Below, one piece after another: positions 2,712 to 14,759 of a stretch of 64,000 nucleotides of DNA. The position numbers and the translations under genes were made by a program. The stretch is taken from the NCBI GenBank assembly GCA_965645245.1, contig OZ287068.1:1612001-1676000 (forward strand), written 5' to 3'. Position 1 is the first letter of the stretch, and each line of letters starts with the position of its first letter. Source of the DNA: Massalongia carnosa (lineage: Eukaryota). Below the pieces are notes generated by a model. The model worked only from the letters and a program-made list of their open reading frames with translations, was not told the origin of the DNA and did no database searches.

Positions 2712-5645
2712 TACGTGAAATATACTGTGAAAATTTGTGCTTACGGAAGTTCCCGTAACCTTAAATGAGGAATGAACTTTAGAAAACTTTGATGTCGCGA
2801 TAGTAGTTGTCCAGTACCGCGAGAGTAGATATTTTTTGTAGATAATTCTTATAGTAGTAATTGAAAGTCTTGCGACAACAGAACAGAAGAAAACAAGAAT
2901 AAAGATCAATTTTTGGTGATGCTGTTGGTATTTGTTGTTTTTTCCAACTTCTAGAGCAGGCTTAATAACGTCGGTTGCGTGCGACCAGTAGAAAAACTCT
3001 GCTGGAGCTTTGCTAGAGCTCTCCTGCACTCAATCTGAGAGCGTTTTTGCTCTGGAGGAGCTCAAATGACTTAGATATTGAGTCTCAATTGACTGTTAAA
3101 GTTATAGATTATCAAAAGTTGCGGTACTTGTGTTTCAATAGGTGTACCCAATGACAATCATGCTATTATACCTACAAAGTCATAGCCGGAGCCTTCAAAG
3201 CTTCGCCCATAGCTGAACTTGAAGCAGAGACATTTATAGCCTCAATTGACATACATTTAGATGAACTACAGGCCTAGACCAGACAACGTCTGTGTCGAAA
3301 GGTCAAAAGAGTTTCATCACAAATGCATGCAACAAAATAGCTAATAAACTTCGAGGTCGGGCAGGACGCAAGAGGGCCCCATTCATCACTCCAGGAACGC
3401 TGAAATACGCCTGGTCCAAGAGAGTCACATCGGAGGCACATAACCCTCCAAAACCGACACCAAATCCACCATGGGCCGAATTCCCCCCGAATCTCGCCCG
3501 AGAAATAGGGGAGGCACGCGCCGCTCATAACAAAATAACTGCTCATATAAAAATACTACACGCATTTGCATTGCAGGCCTCGTGGAGATTATATCAGGAA
3601 TACACACCCGTTTACACCCCGGTACAATCAGGTTCTCTCGTTTCGAGTCATTCAAAAATTACCCGAAACGAAATTGCAGACAAAACAGCAATGACGGGCC
3701 ATAATCGAATCTTAGTGGAGTCCTCGGCGATAACATTTGATTATGTGAAAGAACAAATAAATCAAAATATGCTAACCGCATGTACTAATCAATGGCAACA
3801 TTTCAAATCAAAAGGCAAATATTACGAGAAATTCGAAATGAAACCTGGCAAATCGAGTTTTTATTATTTATCAACTGTTCCAAATTGATATTTGCTACTA
3901 TTATGCAATTAAAATTCGGAAATGGCTATTTTCGATCATATTTATATCGATTGAAAGATTATAATTCGTCACAATGCTCAAATCGATGCAATCAACGACA
4001 AACGCCAGAACACTTGTTAATGAATTGCATTCACTATTTCGATAAAATTTAAAACATGAAACAAAATGTCGATACACCCGTTTGCAAAATGGTGTGCCGA
4101 ACTTTGAACCCCGAAACTGCGCGGTAAAAAAAAAATGCGACATAATTGGACCACACATCAGAATTTGGTGCAGTAGCTAATAGCCCTCCTCCCTTTCACA
4201 CCACCTTTTGCAGTCTGTAGTATAAATGATATGTAGTGTTCTCATGTAGATCTTTATTCTTGCTACCTCGTAGTTTCAAAAGCAACCATGGGACGATCAT
4301 TCAGCATCATCAAACGCCAGGCTATAAAGTTCAGACTGGAATCGGGTGAAGATGCTACTGGTGTCAGCAGCAGACAACTACGTAAGATGAGACATAATTG
4401 GGAACATTTCAGTGAGGTTGCAAAACCTCAGCTTGCTACTGGCCAGCGCAAGAAAATGAATCAACAACAAATCGATCAACTACTCGTGTATCTGGATCAG
4501 AGACCTACCTCTTATTTGGACGAGATGTGCTAGTTTTTGTATGATGAATTTGATGTCTTGGTGAGCGAGTCTACGGTTTCTCGAACTCTTAAGCAGATGG
4601 CCTGGAATCGAAAGATGACCATTCGTATAGCACAACAACGCAACCAATCTTTGCGTGGTAAAGGTAGACGTGATGAAAGATCAAGAATACGGGCATTTAA
4701 AACTGGTGATGATGATCTAGGAGGATTGATCAACGATCAGCTTGCCACCTTCTCCACTCTTATGATACAATGGAAAAGCTTGATAGTAAACGATCTTGCA
4801 CTCGAGAGCAATGCAGTTAAATATTATTTCCTAAACAGTGCACCTGATATTCTGAGCTCTTTTCACCGCTGAATATCAGAACTCGATACAGATAAGACTC
4901 GAGACGGACGAGCCTACACCATCGGTCCTCCTCCTTCTACACCATCGGTCCTCACCACGGAGACGCCAAAGGCCTCACCGTGGGGCGACCGTCAAACATA
5001 GATTTGCTCCTATCTCTTCGCATCAAAACAATGCTAATTTAACGCGTTCACACGCGTCGCAGACGTACGTACGGAAGAGGATACGAAGGCCAACCGCCGG
5101 GGGGTAGAATGCGCGCGTCCCTGCACCATGCTTCTAAGGGTTCAAGTCCCTTCATGCAGTCATCAGCTGGAAGAAGAAGTGGACCAAAGGAGCCGCATCA
5201 TCCCCCACCCGGGCACAGTCGACACGCGTTCTAGCTCCTGAGAGTTCAAGTCTCCCCATGCAGTCATCAGCTGGGATCAACAGAACGCGTAAAGGCACCG
5301 GGGCGAATGCTGTCACCTCAAGAAAACTCCATCTCGGAGCAGAATAACAATATCCCATTTAATAGGCCCGGCCTGTTAAATAAAATCGAGGAAAACAAAG
5401 TCATCAATCACACGTTGTACAAAGCACACAGTCACAAAGCACACAGTCACAAACATACAGTCACAAACACACAGTCACAAAACACACAGTCACAAAAAAC
5501 ACAGTCACAAACCAATAACACGTCCCTGTGAAGGGGGTTCTGCGGGGGCTCGTTAAGACAGATCTGCACCCCGTTAATATCGGAGTACATATTTTTAGAG
5601 GTTCAAGTCCTTTCTAGCAGTCATCAGCTGAAAATAATGTATTTT

Positions 5646-6675
5646 TGTAATACGGATGGCGCTAGAGGGATACGTGCTCGCCTATGGCGGTTGCGGGATT
5701 AACTAGCGTAGACCATGCCGTAGGACAAAGTCGCATAAGCCGTCGAGGCTGACACACTGCCATCTTGCCCCGAAACTTCGGAGTTATTGTTATCACGTTC
5801 TTGACTACTTACAGATCAAACACCTGTCGAGGCCGTGGTGGTAGATTGCCATGGAGTGTAAGGCGGACTCCTGTGGAGACGCCAAGGAACTCTATATGGG
5901 ATCTACTGGCCTACTCGGAGCTACTGGATCTCTTGATGGTTCAAGAGAGGTAGCAGGAGGCACGGCTCGCTGGACGCAGCTTGAGCTAGGCTCCCTGGTG
6001 TAAACTTCAGCTTCAACCTTTATTACTACGTTGGTAGTGATGTCGGCTGAATGAACCTACATGACCTCGTTGTCTAGACCTTGTGTTTAGAGGCAGGTCC
6101 GCAGTGTAGCGAGGTATTCAGTCGGAGGTAACCTTCCATCACTAGGTAGTGGTGACGGCGAAATAAAGCTACATAGCCTGAGGCATGTAGTGAGGGATCT
6201 AGCCGGGGGTAGAATTGTTCTACCTTGCAAGGGAAGGTCTAGAAGGCTGCTCGAGGCTGACTAGATGATCCAGCGAACGCCGAGTTCGTGGATGGATCCT
6301 GAGGGATGGTTGGATGTAATGCGATAAAGTCGGATGTGGATTGCAAGGCTGTAATGCTCGCAAGACTCCCAAGGCTTGCAAGGCTCCTAAGGTTCCAAGG
6401 CTCCCAAGGCTATAGGCTTGGGGTGAGTAGGATAAATATCAGAACGAATCTTGTAGTATTCGTTAGCAATTATTCTTTATTCTATGAACAACCTACGTTT
6501 GGGTCTCGGACGAGATCTCTTGGTCTAAGTACTTCCACATCAATTAGTTCTTTGGATCACATATACTCTCGGAGACTAGCACGTAGTAGCTATCTTCCTC
6601 CTCTCACGCTGAGCATTTCCCCTTTCGAGATCAGTGTCGCTCGTGATAAGCTTACTGGTCTCGTAGCCCATTACA
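5646..6675 (+). mobile_element. Solo-LTR-like element, family L1 (1030 bp)
   Basis: TGTAAT...ATTACA ends; 5-bp TSD ATTTT at 5641-45 and 6676-80; near-identical inverted copy at 19985-21014; orientation label arbitrary. Confidence 0.88.
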
Positions 6676-7728
6676 ATTTTGACACGGGCATGGTGTGGAT
6701 TTGACACGGGTAGACCTCGATGGATCACAAAACGAATGAAAAGAGTTCAGCGGAACTTCGTTAATATTGTTCTCGAAGACCTCGTTAATAAGATTTTCAT
6801 AGACCTCGTTAACAACGTTCGGTCATACTCTTAAAGGTTCAAGTCCTTTCATGCAGTCATCGGCTGAGAGCTAAAGACGTACGACACGGGTCAGCTATGT
6901 CTATCACACGGGTCTCCTTCGTCTACAACACGGAGCCCTCCGGCTGAAAGAAATAAAACATATAGACACATAGTGTAGGGTCACACCCTACACGATACAA
7001 GGGATTTGGGTTATGAAAACCATCCGATTGATGGCTACAGTGAGCAACACGGCCCGAACCGGAGTCGTACCGGGGATGGTGGAGGCAACCTAGTCATCAA
7101 ATAGGACACCCTTGGGACAAGAAGAGGGCAATATACGAGGAACCCGTTAATTGATAACAGTCTAGGCCCTGAGCTAATAGACGAATTTCAAACGAGCACC
7201 CCTCCGAGTTGTCCTCGACTTGTTTTGGTTAGTAGGGACGGAAAATCGATACTATACTGCCTGGTCAGGAGCATAGCTGTCGAAATCCCTGCGAGACATG
7301 GTCGGTTCATAAACGGGAGACCTTTATGAATAACGCGAAGTGGGCGTAAAAAACCCGTGAGGCGTGGTATGCAATGGCGGCCACCGTACGGAGACCGTCT
7401 GCATAGCCCGAGAGGACAGTATGCGCATGTCGGTGTATATAGAGCAGGGAATGTCTATCTCGCTCGTAACGAGACCCGGTCGGTTCGCCGGCGCATGGGC
7501 TACGGCTAGACTCGCCCTTGATATATGCTTAAGGAGTAAACTGGGTTTGACCTGGGCGAAAGGGACGTCGTTCACCCCAATCGTAGAATTCATCAATAGT
7601 CTTGGGCCGTAAAACGCACCAGTGAGATGAATGAAAACTGGGATAGAGACTTCACGAAGAAGATGTCAACTCTATTTTATCATTCTTAGCCGGTGGCGTT
7701 GATAGGGAGCTCTCCCCGTCTTGAACCT

Positions 7729-9159
7729 ATGGATCAAACTCGCGAATATGCATCAGCCCCGTCCACACCGACATCAAAGGCAACGAAATTCCCATCGGGT
7801 CCATTTTCCACTATCTTGCCGATGCCTTCATTGAACTTAAACATTGGATCAAGCCCACCAATCAAACGAAATAAAAGACGCACATTTGACGAACATTCGA
7901 GAGATAGCCAAGAAGCGATCAATCGGGCAAATTCAATTGAGCTTCTAAAGTCGGCCAAAAAAGCATTATTGCAATCATTTGTACTGGACCAAAATCCACA
8001 AACGGCTATCGTAATTGACAACGTTAATTCGTTGATTTCGAATAAATCAATCAATTTACAAACATCCTTAGATATGATTAACTATAAAATGGGCATAGTA
8101 CTTGATCAAACTAGTCATCTTTCCTCAAAAACGTCACAACAACAAACGACTCCACTACAGAATGGTCCAAAAATCCAAAAACCTGTTGTTAAATTGAACG
8201 AAAATTCAATTATCGAAAATCAGACCATTCGCAAAGGAGCCACCGGGGTCTCTGGTAACAATGTTAGCACAACCGGTACATGGAGTCAAATGCTTGGAAA
8301 AGCAACCGAAAACTCCGAAAATTGGACTACTATTCAAAGGAAAAGTTCGAATCATAATTCGAACAAAGTCGATCGATTTGATGCAATCAAGGCCAGACGA
8401 CTCGTAATTTCACCGAAAAATCCTGACGCTCAAATCGACTCTATGAAGATGCGTGATCAAATTAACGAGCTATTAAAAAACGCAAATTTTAACATCATCG
8501 TCAATACTGTTGAAAAGTCCAAAACCGGTCAGAATATCGTTCTCACCACTAGCCCTGACAACAATGCCGAAGAATTGTTGAAAAATAAATCTTCATGGGA
8601 ACACATTTTCGAATCACAAAGAATTCGAAAAGACGAATCCTGGTTTAAAGTCATAGCACACGGAGTAAATATCTCGTTATTCGATAATAACATGCAATAT
8701 TTGCAAACCGAAATCGAAAAATACAATTCGAATATGCAACTATGCGATTTACCGAGATGGCTTGCTCGGGATCGTCAAAACAAAGTCACGTCGTCGGTAG
8801 TTTTGACTTTCAATAATCAAAATCAAGCGTCAAACGCGTTAAGAGGCGTGAATATCGCGGGTAGACATTGTGACACGGAAATATTTGCTTCCGTTCGTCC
8901 AAACACGCAATGTATTAATTGTCAGAAATTTGGACATAAGCATTATCAATGCAAAAGTCCGGCAAAATGCAATATATGCGCACAAAGTCATGAAACGCAT
9001 AATCATGAATGCACAACCTGCAAGTCTAAAATCGCATGCGCACATGCAATTCTGAAATGCGTCAATTGCAACAAAAATCATCAATCGAACGATATAGGTT
9101 GCGAAATGTTTATCTCGCTAAATCCTAGAAAATCGAATGATAAATTAATGCTTGGTTAA
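7729..9159 (+). CDS. LINE ORF1, gag-like nucleic-acid-binding protein
   Basis: Open frame with C-terminal zinc knuckles CINCQKFGHKHYQC, CNICAQSHETHNHEC, CVNCNKNHQSNDIGC; first ATG at 7729. Confidence 0.88.
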   Translation: MDQTREYASAPSTPTSKATKFPSGPFSTILPMPSLNLNIGSSPPIKRNKRRTFDEHSRDSQEAINRANSIELLKSAKKALLQSFVLDQNPQTAIVIDNVNSLISNKSINLQTSLDMINYKMGIVLDQTSHLSSKTSQQQTTPLQNGPKIQKPVVKLNENSIIENQTIRKGATGVSGNNVSTTGTWSQMLGKATENSENWTTIQRKSSNHNSNKVDRFDAIKARRLVISPKNPDAQIDSMKMRDQINELLKNANFNIIVNTVEKSKTGQNIVLTTSPDNNAEELLKNKSSWEHIFESQRIRKDESWFKVIAHGVNISLFDNNMQYLQTEIEKYNSNMQLCDLPRWLARDRQNKVTSSVVLTFNNQNQASNALRGVNIAGRHCDTEIFASVRPNTQCINCQKFGHKHYQCKSPAKCNICAQSHETHNHECTTCKSKIACAHAILKCVNCNKNHQSNDIGCEMFISLNPRKSNDKLMLG

Positions 9160-12100
9160 TGGCGGGACAACATTCGTTGACAAATATCGAAAATACACAA
9201 AATGTCAAATTTATTCAACATAATTGTGCAAAGTCAACGAATGCAATGATTTCGTGTCTGGAATATGCAGTATTAAATCGTGTTGATATTGTTTTATTTC
9301 AGGAACCATGGACGCGAGATCAAAAAACAATTTCCCATCCGTCATTCACATGTATTATGCCGAAAATAGCGACTTATCGGCCGAGAGTAGCTATATTCGT
9401 TACAAAATGCAATCCAAAATTACAATGCACGCCTAGAACGGATCTTATAAACGATACTGATCTGCAAATTATCGAAATTACAATTGATGAAGTTCGAAAA
9501 GTGCAGATCTTTAACCTTTACAATGAAAAAAGTCTAAACGATCGAGAAACATATACAATCGATCGACTTTTAGTTAAATATCAACCTATATCAACTGATC
9601 AATTTGTCATATGTGGAGATTTCAATGCACATCATAGCTGGTGGAATTCGAACATTCAAAATGCAATTCGATCAGAAAATCTAGTCAAATGGTTAAAATT
9701 AAACAAATGTAGTTTGATAAATACGCCTGATCTATATACATTTTTTGCTTATTCAGGAAACTCTTCATCTATTATTGATTTAACATTTGCAAATTCTAAA
9801 ATCGAAAACGCAATTACAAACTGGTCAATCGATGAAAACGCAGTCACGGGTTCAGATCATGAAGTTATTCGATTTGAACTTATCGCGTCTTTCAAGAACT
9901 TGACGTCACACGCAACCGCATTATCGAATAAATACAACTGCAATAAAGCCGATTGGGATAAATTCGCGAAGTTTCTAGACGAAAATGCAATAAACTACGA
10001 GTCCCATATACAAAGTCTATTGAACAATTATCAATTTGATGAATCAGCGTTATATTTGCAAAACGTTATCAAAAACGCGGCTGAAATGTTTATTCCGAAG
10101 ACAAAAATATGCGCAAAATCGAAAAATTGGTGGTCGCAAGATTTATCCGGACTTCGAAAAACATGTGTAGACATCGTCGAGAATGGAAGAATAATCCGTC
10201 CTATTTTAGTCATCAAACATTTAGACATAGTCGAATCGATTACTTTCATGCAATTCGAAAAGCGAAACAGCAAACTTGGTTGGCTTTCCTCGAAAACGCA
10301 GCGAATAAAGACGTATTTACAGCTTATAAATACACTAAACCGCGCATGTTCGAAAAAATACCACCTATTCAATATGAAAATAAGTTAAATGTTCAATTCG
10401 ATCACAAATGCGATGCGTTTGTGTCAGCAATGTACACAAAAAACCCGTTCACTGATGATAATATTGAAGATTTAACGAATCAAGACAGCGAAAATGACAA
10501 CAATTGGCCGAATTTAACAGAAAATGAATTGCAAAATGCGATTAGTTTGTTTAATCCAAAGAAATCATGTGGGCCTGATGCAATCAATTTCACAATAATT
10601 CAAAAATCGTTTCAACCATTGAAAAACGTGTTTTTTACTATTTATTCTTAATTTATACAAATCGGTTATCACCCGTTATGTTGGCGAACAGGACTCGGTG
10701 CTGATTTAAAAAAACCTAATAAACCAGACTACTCGCTGCCAAAATCATATCGAATTATTACCTTACTGAATTGTCTTGGTAAAATTGCGGAGAAAATAGT
10801 TGCTAATCGACTAGCCTACCTCGGCGAAAATTCGAGCTTGTTAGATACCGAACAAATGGGCGGACGGAAAAATCATTCTGCAATCGATGCGGTAATGAAC
10901 GTCGTTCATGATATCGAAATCGCAAACCGAAACAAAAACGTTTTATCATGTCTATTACTCGATGTCAAAGGAGCATTTGACTTTGTTTCGATTAATCAAT
11001 TGATAAATGTCATGAAAAAGCTGCATTTATCTCGCATAGTTATTCAATGGGTCAAGCATTTTATGACAAAACGATCGATCAATTTGATATTCGATGAACA
11101 CAAAAGCAAAACGTACTATATCGAATCTGGAATTCCACAAGGTTCACCAATTTCGCCAATTCTATTTCTGATTTATATTCGTTACTTATTTCCGAAAATA
11201 CGAATGAAATTCAATGCTCATTCACCTAGCTTTATAGACGATGTTGCAATATATGTCGAAAATAAAACTGCCACACAGAATTGCAAAGAAATCGAAATTA
11301 TCGTCAAAACAGCTTTTGATTGGGCCGCAACGAATAATGTCAAATTTGATGACGACAAATCTGAGTTGATTCACTTCGAAAAGTCAAGAAATGCATCAGA
11401 AGACAAAGTGCAATTACCAAACGGGACAATACTAGAACCGAAAAATTCTGTTAAATGGTTAGGAGTCTGGTTAGACCGAAAACTAAATTACAAAAAACAC
11501 GTCGAAACGCGAATTGCTTCTGCAAATCGATCGTTTTTCGCAATTCAAAATTTGATGAAGTCTGAATGGGGACTAAAGGCAACTGCATGCAGACAGCTCT
11601 ATTTGTCATGCATTATTCCTATTTCGGACTATGGCTCAAAAATCTGGTATAACGGTCAAAAGAAATATGAAAAGCTATTTCAGAATCTGCAAAATCGAAT
11701 GATTCGAAAGATTTTAGGCATATTCAAAACGACGCCTGTTCAGGCGATGGAAATTGAATCGCATATTTTACCAGCCAAGCTACGATTGTTGATGAAAAAT
11801 CAAAAATACGCAATTCGATTATTGAAGATTGCCGAAAATAATCCTATTTGTCAAAGAATTCCCAGTACCTATACGGTGAAATTTGAAAACATTGGTTTTG
11901 ACACTAGTTTATGGAACAACAGATATGCTGAATGGAACGAAGACGAGAAAAAATCGAGTAAACCTCATCCTAGTCAGCTTATCCGTATTCTTCATTCCGT
12001 TTCGGATATAGTTCACAAAACTGATGAATTTGAATCAGTAAAGAATTTCATCAAACCATGGAAGCCGTCTTGTAAAATCAAGTTCCAAATCGAAAGATCA

Positions 12101-13171
12101 AAAGAAACAGCAAAGTCAAGTTATTATTCGACTTTATCAAAAATTCAATCAATAAACGCCGATAAATCGCAAATTTTACTCTATACCGATGGATCAAAAA
12201 CCGAGTTTTCAACTTCCGCTGTCACATTTGCACCAATTACGCGAAATTGGAACAATTTTACCGATAACTTCAATCGTTTTATCGAAAAAGATTGTCTCCT
12301 CAAACATCATACGATTTCGAAAAGCTGGAAATTAAACAAACAGTCAAGCGTTAAAAACGCTGAACTGTATTCGATACTACAAGCAATAAAATGGGCATAC
12401 AAATTGACAATTGCGAATATTCTCTTCAATTTGGAAAAAACGATTTGGATTTTTTCCGATAGCATAAACGCGATAAACGAAATTCAGAACTTGACAAATC
12501 ATACTTACGCAAAACAAATTCGAAAATTCTCGAAATGCTTATTCGGAAATAATTATCAGGTGGTTCTACAATGGATTCCTAGTCATTCGAAAATCGTCGA
12601 AAATGAAATTGCAGATAAAGCAGCTAAAGCGGGACATAGTCGAATCCTAGTCGAGTCTTTGATAATAACATTTGATTATGTGAAGTGTCAAATAAACCGA
12701 AATATGTTAGCCACATGGGCGAATCAATGGCAACAATGCAAGTCAAAAGGCAAATACTATGAGAAATTCGAAATGCAGCCGGGCAAATCGAGTTTTTATT
12801 ATCTGTCGAATAATTGTTCTAAATTAATATTTGCAACTATTATGCAAATGAAATTCGGACACGGTTATTTTCGATCATATCTGCACCGATTGAAAGATTA
12901 TAATTCGTCAAAATGCACAGGGCGCTGCAACGAACGTCAAACACCAGAACACTTATTGATGAATTGTATACATTATTCAAATGAAATCCTAAACATGAAA
13001 CAAAATATCGATACCACAATTACTTTAAAAATGTTGTTTAATACTAGGATCGGAAATAATATTTTGATTAAATTTATTGTTGATAACAAAATCGCGACTA
13101 GAAAATGGATGCTAGGTCAGCTCGATGACGAAAATATCGAAACGGGAGGTTGGGGAGAGATCGAACAGTAA
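9159..13171 (+). pseudogene. LINE ORF2 (AP endonuclease, reverse transcriptase, RNase H, CCHC) with one frameshift (~10160) and one stop (10649-51)
   Basis: QHNC/LFQEP/GDFNAHH/GSDH (APE); LDVKGAFD, GIPQGSPISP, FIDD (RT); YTDGS, AEL, FSDS, WIPSH, NEIADKAAK (RNase H). Confidence 0.93.
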
Positions 13172-14759
13172 AATTAGAAATGATTTATGCTGGAATATTT
13201 ACGAGCTTTACAAAAACAAATTTTAAAATCGATATTTCGATTACTAAAGGTTGTTACTAACACGGAGTAAAAACGGGGCAATATTGACTATACATAGTTG
13301 GGTTATAAAGGGTTGATTTATTTGTAAAATAAAACCATATCTTAAAATAGTTTAGTGTCATAACCTTAGGTTGAATACACTTAATGAATAAATAAAAATA
13401 GGAGGATTGATCCTAAGCATTTGTTTAAATGAAGGTGCTGAGTTCCTAGGTAATTCAGTAGTAGATGCCCGTTTTCATGATTGTTTGGAGGGCTGTTTGG
13501 GGGGCTGTTTTGAAGGCTGTTTAGGAGGCTGTTTTCGAGGCATGATGGCTGGAATAACTACGTTGAAAGTTCATATAAACGACAATCAAAAGGATATCAT
13601 TAACCGTACTATCCTATAGACTGCAAAGGGCAGTGTGAAGGGGAGGAAGGCTATTAACTACTGCACCAAATTCTGGTGTGTGGTCCAATTCTGTCGCTTA
13701 TTTTTTTTTTTTTTTTACCGCGCAGTTTCGGGGTTCAAAGTTCGGCACACCATTTTGCAAACGGGTGTACTACGATCATCTTGAATATGTTGATTAAGTC
13801 AAAAATCGGAAATGATATTTTTATTAAATTTATTGTAAATAACAAAATCGCGACTAGAAAATAGATACTAGGACAGCTTGATGACGAAATTATCGTAACT
13901 GGAGGTTGGGGAGAGATCGATCAGTAAAATCATAAATGAGTTATGCTGAAACATTTACGAACTTACAAAGACAAATTGTAAAATCGATAGTTTTTCGATT
14001 ACTATAGGCTGTTACTAATAAGGAGTAAAAATGCGGAAAAACTGACGATAAATAGATTGGTTATAAAGGGTTGATTTATTTGCATTATAGAAACATATCC
14101 TAAAATAGTTTAGTGTCATAACCTTAGGTTGAATACACTTAATGAATAAATATAAAAAAAATCAGGTTCACTCTCCAAAAAACGCATCAAATTGCCCGAA
14201 ACTCTAGCCAAAGCGGAGAGCGCGCTAGCCATTCAGATACGCTCAGAAAAGATAGGCCTAGCCGCCTTCCTATATAGATACCGAGTCCCAGACGTCTCGT
14301 CCCCGAACTGCTTATGTGGCTGGCACAAACAGACCGCAAAACATGAGATCATGTTTTGCAAACTCAACGACAACAGAAAAACTCTGCTAAATACGATAGA
14401 CACAAACAACTACCGATTAATTACTGAGTTATCTAAAGCAATGAACTTAGACATAAAGTTGCTAATGAAGACAGGTTTGTTGTCACAATTTTCGCTGACA
14501 GCACAGCATCTATACTGCTAACAGTAGGCATGCTTTTTATTCATTTTTCATACTTGTCTTAGGTGAAAGGTTTTTTCATGGAGCACACGGCTGGGACCCG
14601 GAGGGTCCTCGGCCGGACACAGGATTGCATAGTATTTCTTCCTCAAAAGGTTTTCCATGTACTATAAAACTAGATAGACTCGCCCGCATGGGCCGGCCTT
14701 CGGCCGCTACCATATCGGAATAAGTATCATCATTATCATCATTATCATTACTCGATGTC

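Follow-up and report, generated by a model that had tools for sequence, protein, structure and literature searches.

Candidate T-arm-mimic RNA modules and a second structured domain in the leader of a fungal LINE

We analysed a stretch of 64,000 nucleotides from Massalongia carnosa (contig OZ287068.1; hereafter the window) and found four copies of a small module in the leader, or 5' untranslated region (UTR), of a full-length retrotransposon without long terminal repeats (non-LTR), a long interspersed nuclear element (LINE). Each module holds a hairpin whose 7-nt loop resembles the T-loop of tRNA, and comparison with homologous copies indicates that the modules are a selected RNA structure of the sense strand. 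We tentatively favour, somewhat short of an even bet, the reading that they are an undescribed cis-acting T-arm mimic of fungal non-LTR retrotransposons that serves protein recruitment or the handling of a ribonucleoprotein (RNP). A second conserved RNA domain of ~ 340 nt (the block) lies downstream of the modules, and each of the two looks like a new family within the known kind of cis-acting structured RNAs in retrotransposon leaders. The coordinates of all features are collected in Table 1.

Structure and conservation of the modules

An invariant 12-mer, GCAGTCATCRGC, occurs exactly at positions 5156, 5260, 5617, and 6853 of the + strand. A degenerate 30-nt pattern covering loop and core found the same four sites and none elsewhere in the 64 kb, with a chance expectation of 0.00 in 100 dinucleotide shuffles. 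The covariance model R1 scored the four copies at 59.5–66.8 bits, and its scan of the window gave no fifth copy. The first-pass annotation of this DNA had described four covarying copies of a T-loop motif here, and the pattern scan, the shuffles, and R1 all bear this out. It had also described flanking stems that differ from copy to copy and keep pairing; these stems are readable in the sequence, and the helix enclosing the hairpin (P1) is present in the minimum-free-energy (MFE) folds of copies 1, 2, and 4. The MFE fold of copy 1 consists of P1, the inner stem (P2), and a mini-hairpin, while that of copy 2 also forms the outer stem ACGCGUUCU/AGAACGCGU. The core of module 4 has CAUCGGCU, and its CUCGU and ACGGG flanks pair in the homologues. 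CGUUAA and ACACGGG elements are present in window copies 3 and 4 and absent from copies 1 and 2.

To find relatives, the pattern GTTCAAGTC-N(5-9)-GCAGTCATCRGC was run on public contig collections, where it matched 48 metagenome loci and three loci in bacterial genome contigs; the scan of viral contigs gave 0 matches. The three bacterial loci, L003/L021, and L031 were dropped as chance matches without flanking stems. Those of them searched with R1 reached 13.8–20.2 bits, compared with at least 33 for the rest, and L031 had no R1 match up to E = 1. The rows L001:3463 and L040:3463 (15.7 bits each) were also left out of the counts. Forty-five metagenome loci remain that are apparently genuine, one of which (L006) adjoins a fungal Zn2Cys6 transcription-factor gene. 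Across 271 kb of loci and window, R1 made 117 matches (four in the window), of which 77 are distinct after the exclusions, and the matches within any one locus are all on the same strand. The modules stand in tandem, 1 to 4 per stretch examined, at spacings of 183 or ~ 116–140 bp. Wherever a locus had similarity to the endonuclease (APE) or reverse transcriptase (RT) of the window's LINE, that similarity lay downstream of the modules on the same strand (12 of 12 loci), and the RT proteins at these loci are 23–34% identical to the window's. These contigs indicate that the motif is shared by a large number of related elements in fungi of soil and lichens. A covariance-model search with a check on covariation had been proposed in the first-pass annotation, and it did find relatives in metagenome contigs with helices that covary.

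RNAalifold, applied to 29 diverse copies, returned P1 together with a 5-bp stem closed by a 7-nt loop, and eight of the 12 pairs showed compensatory change. The inner stem had been given as 3 bp, which needs correction: it is 5 bp long, with exchange between GC and AU at four of its five pairs across homologues. We measured pairing in two alignments. In the first (A2; 30 copies less than 92% identical, picked from 42 distinct ones), 94.0% of helix cells were paired, compared with 78.5% in column shuffles, and 45–72% in slid controls in which the partner was moved by 1–3 columns. Double changes numbered 75 in A2 versus 26.3 in the shuffles, with 0 of 500 shuffles as high. In the second (A3; 81 distinct rows found by R1), 89.9% of cells were paired versus 78.4% after shuffling, with 192 double changes versus 66.8. 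Thirty-seven of these 81 rows fall outside the search pattern yet retain the loop and AGU.A..CU. Conservation in those rows was not made by the search, because they fail its pattern. The near-invariance claimed for the core thus holds outside the search pattern, while in the first alignments it was partly made by that pattern.

The mismatches point to the strand on which the structure is selected. In P1 (minus its closing pair) and P2 of the 77 distinct copies, G-U was observed 59 times and A-C 19 times. Decay by transitions should yield both mismatches equally, and the excess therefore argues for selection on RNA of the + strand. This bears out the earlier remark that the G-U wobbles favour the + (LINE sense) strand.

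Positions U23, U24, A26, A27, and G28 of the loop are invariant in all 77 copies, and U29 in 76. In 75 of the 77 the loop reads UUCAAGU and is closed by a G-C pair, as expected from the likeness to a tRNA T-loop that had been claimed for it, and it fits the Pus4 consensus GUUCNANNC as given in the available part of PMC13492117. A 5-bp covarying stem carrying a 7-nt loop that matches this consensus was found, which makes the hairpin a T-loop motif in sequence and secondary structure. P1 pairs a pyrimidine-rich 5' strand with a purine-rich 3' strand and continues directly into the 5-bp stem; U17 at the junction of P1 and P2 is kept in 76 of the 77 copies. A conserved 13-nt segment, GCAGUCAUCAGCU, connects the T-arm back to P1, and G49, U50, A52, C57, and U58 of this joining segment are invariant (77/77). 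P1 is closed by a conserved U.G pair (26/30), which competes with a possible mini-hairpin CAGU/GCUG. The joining segment may therefore be a 16-nt bulge closed by U.G, or a 4-bp mini-hairpin CAGU/GCUG in a three-way junction. Candidate tertiary pairings of the T-loop with ACUUG strings and of the core with an upstream ACUG were rejected, as the partner strings vary across families; loop-loop pairing lies beyond the reach of covariation because the loop positions are invariant.

Among the better-preserved families, an irregular hairpin of ~ 115 nt carries the core at its tip. Its upstream YYNGU and downstream ACNRG are 84% paired, with the middle pair CG in 16 copies and UA in nine, and UGG/CCA, which exchanges with UCG/CGA, is 89% paired. 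The full nested hairpin, outermost stem included, was recovered in about a dozen of 49 MFE folds.

The retrotransposon and its leader cassette

The limits of the LINE follow from a 14-bp target-site duplication and from an empty site in another genome. The direct repeat TAGGAGGATTGATC stands at 4718–4731 and again at 13399–13412, 3' of the A-rich tail, and a contig of run X7 has 4656–4730 joined straight to the flank that follows the LINE. We compared the window with DNA contigs of four other runs (X1, X2, X6, and X7). The placement of the motif within a LINE leader, part of the first-pass annotation, is confirmed by the duplication and the empty site. The modules were kept in the element, whose 5' end at 4732 lies 400 nt before module 1. 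LINE copies in other genomes begin at 4921 and 4941, and none at a module, among the loose ends listed. APE, RT, and RNase H domains (Pfam PF14529/PF03372, PF00078, and PF00075 in the ORF2 region), a gag-like first open reading frame (ORF1), the target-site duplication, and the A-rich 3' end were all found, which makes the element a non-LTR retrotransposon with a Tad1/I-like domain order. The Pfam scan of ORF1 gave no match; its CCHC motif, CX2CX4HX4C, was seen directly in the translation.

The ~ 1-kb segment at 5646–6675 is foreign to the LINE. All four of the other runs have a joint from 5640 to 6676 (1035 positions skipped, five letters fitting either side), in 11 contigs of X1, two of X2, and one each of X6 and X7, and word depth over 5646–6675 exceeds that over the LINE. 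The wide spacing of modules 3 and 4 is due to this later insertion. The 3' element of module 3, GACACGGGCA, resumes beyond it at 6681–6690, and excising the segment restores GACACGGGCA directly 3' of the module; the loose-end consensus at the joint is GACACGGGCAT.

A further short tandem repeat was observed in the leader at 4914–4953 (CTACACCATCGGTCCTC twice), and its copy number differs among LINE copies. The LINE is itself nested within a DNA transposon, with inverted terminal repeats of ~ 160 bp at 4065–4222 and 13600–13765 and a transposase-like frame that opens near 4289 and is broken at the LINE target site. The 3' end of the same LINE recurs at 13830–14165 in a second copy, which is truncated at its 5' side and finishes in the same ...CTTAATGAATAAATA... 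and A-rich tail.

The block matches the window at 7220–7561 in nhmmer (E 3.7e-86) and has 72–77% nucleotide identity to ~ 30 loci (among others L001, L009, L012, L020, L027, L030, L035, L042, and L048). It lies 3' of the modules on the same strand in the window and in 34 of the 45 loci; most of the remaining 11 stop too early to show it. RNAalifold of 12 sequences gave 63 pairs, of which 30 show compensatory changes, and 96.6% of the cells were paired versus 87.6% after shuffling and 26–48% after sliding, for a structure derived from the same alignment. Invariant strings include CUUUGGUUAGU, GUAACGCGAAGC, GAGAGGACAGU, and AUGCUUAAGGAGUAAAC, and a long-range helix is formed by GACAUG/CAUGUC. 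A coding sequence was rejected on the stops in all three window frames and on a conservation pattern that is one of helices. The block was also rejected as rRNA, signal recognition particle (SRP) RNA, RNase P/MRP, small nuclear RNA, group I intron, or GIR1, none of which had an Rfam match, and a match to SpR10 at 7205–7248 (26.3 bits, below the gathering score of 50) was regarded as chance. The block is a candidate IRES-like (internal ribosome entry site) or protein-binding RNA.

Modules and block appear to travel together as a cassette. The block directly precedes the first ORF whichever its type, which in the window is ORF1, and the distance from modules to block is 50–600 nt. At L011, L012, L013, L030, L046, and L048, an RT-like ORF lies ~ 35–320 nt 3' of the block; these six loci, in which ORF1 and APE were not detected, are either deletion derivatives or another element type with the same cassette. 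The cassette is 79–89% identical in nucleotides between locus pairs, with no nucleotide match beyond it. Contigs of two other runs track the window's leader closely to 7691 and then continue into unrelated sequence; in a third run, 24 nt are deleted at 7690. Position 7691, where the ORF1 frame opens, looks like a junction at which leader cassettes and bodies are exchanged. The RNA cassette is 70–89% identical where the RTs are 23–34% identical to the window's. This contrast points to a highly conserved partner, such as the host's tRNA-handling or translation machinery, and also suggests that LINE lineages have swapped leader cassettes.

A second family, with monomers of 183 bp, has shared sequence that starts ~ 390 nt before its first module, inside a block copy that is incomplete (profile positions ~ 45–187). 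The order there is partial block, monomers, full block, which suggests an older arrangement of block, monomers, and block.

Known RNA classes and possible functions

A comparison with Rfam 15 gave no match over the modules of the window at E<=10, and in eight better-preserved loci at E<=5 only the T-arm of transfer-messenger RNA (tmRNA) at 11.5 bits. The earlier statement that the module could not be assigned to a known class agrees with this result. In the same scans no twister, twister-sister, pistol, hatchet, or hairpin ribozyme was matched, nor any SRP family; the string of the mini-hairpin bears a resemblance to the SRP Alu domain, which has two hairpins closed by a helix. A tRNA gene or tRNA-derived short interspersed element was rejected, as ARAGORN found 0 genes in the 64 kb and no Rfam tRNA match was obtained. 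Literature searches with core strings from the module, and with six strings from the block, led only to unrelated papers, and keyword searches about LINE leaders, ribozymes, tRNA-like elements, and structured RNAs of fungi yielded no description of the motif. The available part of a survey of fungal structural RNAs (PMC8216456) has 0 occurrences of "retrotransposon".

The T-arm of tRNA and tmRNA has the same 5-bp stem, G-C closing pair, and 7-nt loop fitting GUUCNANNC. Unlike a tRNA T-arm, the module is not part of a cloverleaf, and it continues without a break into the enclosing helix through its 5' strand, where a T-arm does so through its 3' strand. Loop positions 59–60 (GU) are invariant in the module, whereas they vary in tRNA. 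Box B of brome mosaic virus (BMV) is a T-loop mimic that undergoes modification in vivo. According to the available part of PMC5869524, it is a bulged stem-loop required for 1a-mediated template recruitment, by which the viral RNA reaches the virus's own replication protein; like the module, it lies in non-coding sequence of an RNA that replicates. It differs in belonging to a plus-strand RNA virus with a single copy per RNA, and in lacking the conserved 13-nt junction and the enclosing long hairpin. For the block, and for RNP assembly by a 5' RNA, the nearest analogue is the 323-nt 5' RNA of R2Bm, which orchestrates R2 protein function; as described in the available part of PMC2346776, this is a structured RNA of ~ 320 nt near the 5' end or ORF start that directs the element's own protein. 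R2 is site-specific, has a single ORF and a restriction-like endonuclease, and carries this RNA in coding sequence; the proposed analogy is one of position and role.

The modules are probably protein-docking or RNA-handling signals and not self-cutting ribozymes. The module would act as a docking site within the intact full-length LINE RNA, where a T-arm mimic presented several times would recruit a factor that recognises T-arms. The host could supply it as a protein that handles tRNA, for instance a Pus4/Trm2-class modifier or an export or elongation factor; alternatively, it could come from the element itself, as the CCHC protein of ORF1 or as the RT. Its recruitment would mark the LINE RNA to be stabilised, routed, translated, or assembled into an RNP, with BMV box B and the R2 5' RNA as precedents for RNAs that serve their own molecules in this way.

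Several observations weigh against this reading. Three of the four window copies fold no better than shuffles (single-sequence z of -0.2, -3.1 (-3.09), -0.9, and -0.2 for copies 1 to 4), and because their folding energy is ordinary, the evidence is comparative and not thermodynamic. The covariation consists almost wholly of transitions, with pyrimidine strands opposite purine strands, which raises the shuffled baseline and is also compatible with C-to-T decay filtered by selection; moreover, the shuffle counts are not probabilities, since the sequences are related. The mini-hairpin (P3) is weakly supported, with pair 47/60 CG in 63 copies, UG in four, UA in three, GC in one, and unpaired in 10, and the outermost helix of the long hairpin (P0), only 53% paired in a MAFFT alignment, is not established. 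L007/L014 have modules with no detectable block or RT within 1–3 kb downstream. No RNA runs containing 4900–7700 were listed, and tandem leader units of variable number also resemble promoter monomers.

The rival that comes nearest assigns the modules a part in cap-independent translation; we consider it unlikely but worth keeping in view. Modules and block would together form an IRES-like region that recruits ribosomes, with the T-arm mimic contacting the ribosome or a translation factor as the tRNA elbow does. Cap-independent entry would be called for because a leader of ~ 3 kb (4732 to the AUG at 7729) cannot be scanned. The block is a complex multi-junction RNA that always stands directly before the first ORF, whichever ORF that is, and the cassette is common to elements with unlike downstream sequence; viral IRESs are likewise structured RNAs that dock on conserved host machinery and get swapped among elements. 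Nothing links the modules themselves to the ribosome, however; their number varies, they lie 50–600 nt from the block, and no known IRES family was matched in the Rfam scans of the window and the eight loci. We are more doubtful of a larger version, in which modules and block are one large catalytic RNA, or one that hijacks the ribosome or the tRNA machinery, mobile as a cassette between otherwise unrelated fungal retroelements. Such an RNA may, for example, process or cap a sub-population of transcripts, or ride the tRNA transport and modification system.

An explanation at the level of DNA, in which the units are tandem promoter or insulator monomers and their folding is incidental, strikes us as equally doubtful. 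The leader of mouse L1 consists of tandem units in variable number followed by a non-repeated segment (the tether) before ORF1, and the modules, too, are tandem, variable in number, and followed by a non-repeated segment. LINEs need internal promoters, and CGTTAA- and ACACGGG-like strings recur without the hairpin at 6680–6930. Sites for factors could be a B box for TFIIIC at GGTTCAAGTCC, which fits the consensus of the RNA polymerase III (Pol III) B box, the E-box-like CAGCTG, CGTTAA, and ACACGGGCA. The mouse monomers are, however, DNA promoters without reported RNA covariation, while in the module a fold of the sense strand is under selection: covarying helices with 59 G-U over 19 A-C require a single-stranded + strand, and CGU and ACG in the flanking "sites" form covarying pairs with one another (CG 16, UA 9). 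The array of TFIIIC B boxes offered as an alternative in the first-pass annotation is disfavoured for the same kind of reason. Box positions in the stem covary (pair 21/32 is GC in 56 copies and AU in 18, and the closing pair is A-U in two), as do outer helices that a B box does not need. A type-2 Pol III promoter also lacks its partner, since no tRNA-like A box was found 30–60 bp upstream, ARAGORN and the Rfam tRNA model find nothing, and a transcript of 8 kb, from an element of 8.7 kb, is presumably not a Pol III product.

A new class of small self-cleaving ribozyme that frees the LINE RNA from longer transcripts is, in our estimate, quite improbable, although the first-pass annotation had raised it. 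In favour are the conserved junction of ~ 13 nt beside covarying helices and the conserved G.U at the junction, which are typical of small ribozymes, and the HDV-like (hepatitis delta virus) ribozymes at the 5' ends of other LINEs (R2 and L1Tc; available parts of PMC3185411 and PMC3774820), which are also structured RNAs in the 5' part of a non-LTR retrotransposon. Those, however, occur once per element at its extreme 5' end and form a nested double pseudoknot, whereas the modules are internal and tandem. An HDV-like ribozyme was rejected on the module's topology (P1-hairpin-junction-P1'), its position at least 400 nt inside the element, and the absence of an Rfam match. Efficient self-cleavage is argued against because the modules are internal to a ~ 3-kb leader that was retrotransposed intact, the full-length copy keeping ~ 400 nt 5' of module 1, all four modules, and the block. 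The readable copy ends (4732, 4921, and 4941) are none at a module, the second family begins ~ 390 nt upstream of its first module, and several cutters in tandem would leave just the last. Weak or regulated cleavage may still occur. No ribozyme family was matched in the Rfam scans. A minus-strand hammerhead was rejected, as CUGAUGA is present there without the rest of the hammerhead elements; copy 4 reads CCGAUGA on that strand, the helices favour the + strand, and no Rfam hammerhead match was found. The minus-strand box C/D reading of CUGAUGA was rejected as well. Least probable of all, and very remote in our view, is a block to exonucleases, in which the tandem folds would stall 5'-3' decay and shield the coding RNA like the tandem exoribonuclease-resistant RNAs (xrRNAs) of flaviviruses. 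xrRNAs are structured and often duplicated (available part of PMC12081666), and the modules are tandem, upstream of the RNA to be protected, and possibly built on a three-way junction. No ring-forming pseudoknot was found, the single-stranded parts being invariant and beyond the covariation test; predicted stability is low, and neither the sequence nor the Rfam scans show a likeness to any xrRNA.

Few eukaryotic mobile elements are known to carry conserved RNA structures backed by solid covariation. The known ones, HDV-like ribozymes and the protein-binding RNAs of R2, account for the way in which their elements produce and use RNA. The modules and the block would add two new structured RNAs, a T-arm-mimic core of ~ 50 nt in a hairpin of ~ 115 nt and a multi-junction domain of ~ 340 nt, both of which are candidates for new Rfam families. 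If the favoured T-arm-mimic reading is true, a tRNA-arm mimic in a retrotransposon bears on the origin of the non-tRNA targets of tRNA-modifying enzymes.

Features of the window

Table 1. Features of the LINE and its leader, in window positions unless stated otherwise
Feature	Position	Strand	Remarks
Full-length non-LTR retrotransposon (LINE)	4732..13398	+	Includes a later 1-kb insertion; Pfam APE, RT, RNase H
LINE leader (5' UTR)	4732 to ~7728	+	~3 kb; ORF1 AUG = 7729
Module 1	5131..5173	+	P1 CUUCU/GGAAG, P2 AAGGG/CCCUU, loop UUCAAGU, core GCAGUCAUCAGCU; R1 match 5120-5187, 66.4 bits
Module 2	5224..5290	+	Additional outer 9-bp stem ACGCGUUCU/AGAACGCGU; R1 match 5224-5291, 59.5 bits
Tandem 15-nt repeat, ACAAAGCACACAGTC-like	5404..5527	+	Between modules 2 and 3; array length varies among LINE copies
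Module 3	5560..5645	+	Upstream element CCGUUAAUA; R1 match 5581-5648, 65.9 bits
Later insertion, foreign to the LINE	5646..6675		Ends TGTAAT...ATTACA; 5-bp duplication ATTTT; resembles a solo LTR
Module 4	6805..6890	+	Flanks CUCGU (6805-6809) and ACGGG (6886-6890); R1 match 6817-6884, 66.8 bits
Second conserved structured RNA domain (block)	7215..7575	+	Multi-helix; ends ~150 nt before the ORF1 AUG
ORF1	7690..9159	+	First AUG 7729; gag-like; CCHC zinc-knuckle motifs near the C terminus
ORF2 region, in pieces	9159..13171	+	APE endonuclease 9159-10388; RT + RNase H 10838-13171
Partial-block loci	~2590-2785 in oriented loci		L002, L004, L017-L019, L027, L029, L033, L037-L039, L041, L043, L046

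The window is a transposon-rich eukaryotic region, and a lichen metagenome is among the DNA runs that contain the stretch. Positions 14000–64000 are mostly transposons, with two Ty3-type LTR elements, a Tc1-like DDE_3 transposase, and piggyBac-like transposases. An NDC10_II/GCR1_C ORF and one fragment of an asparagine synthase gene were also observed there.

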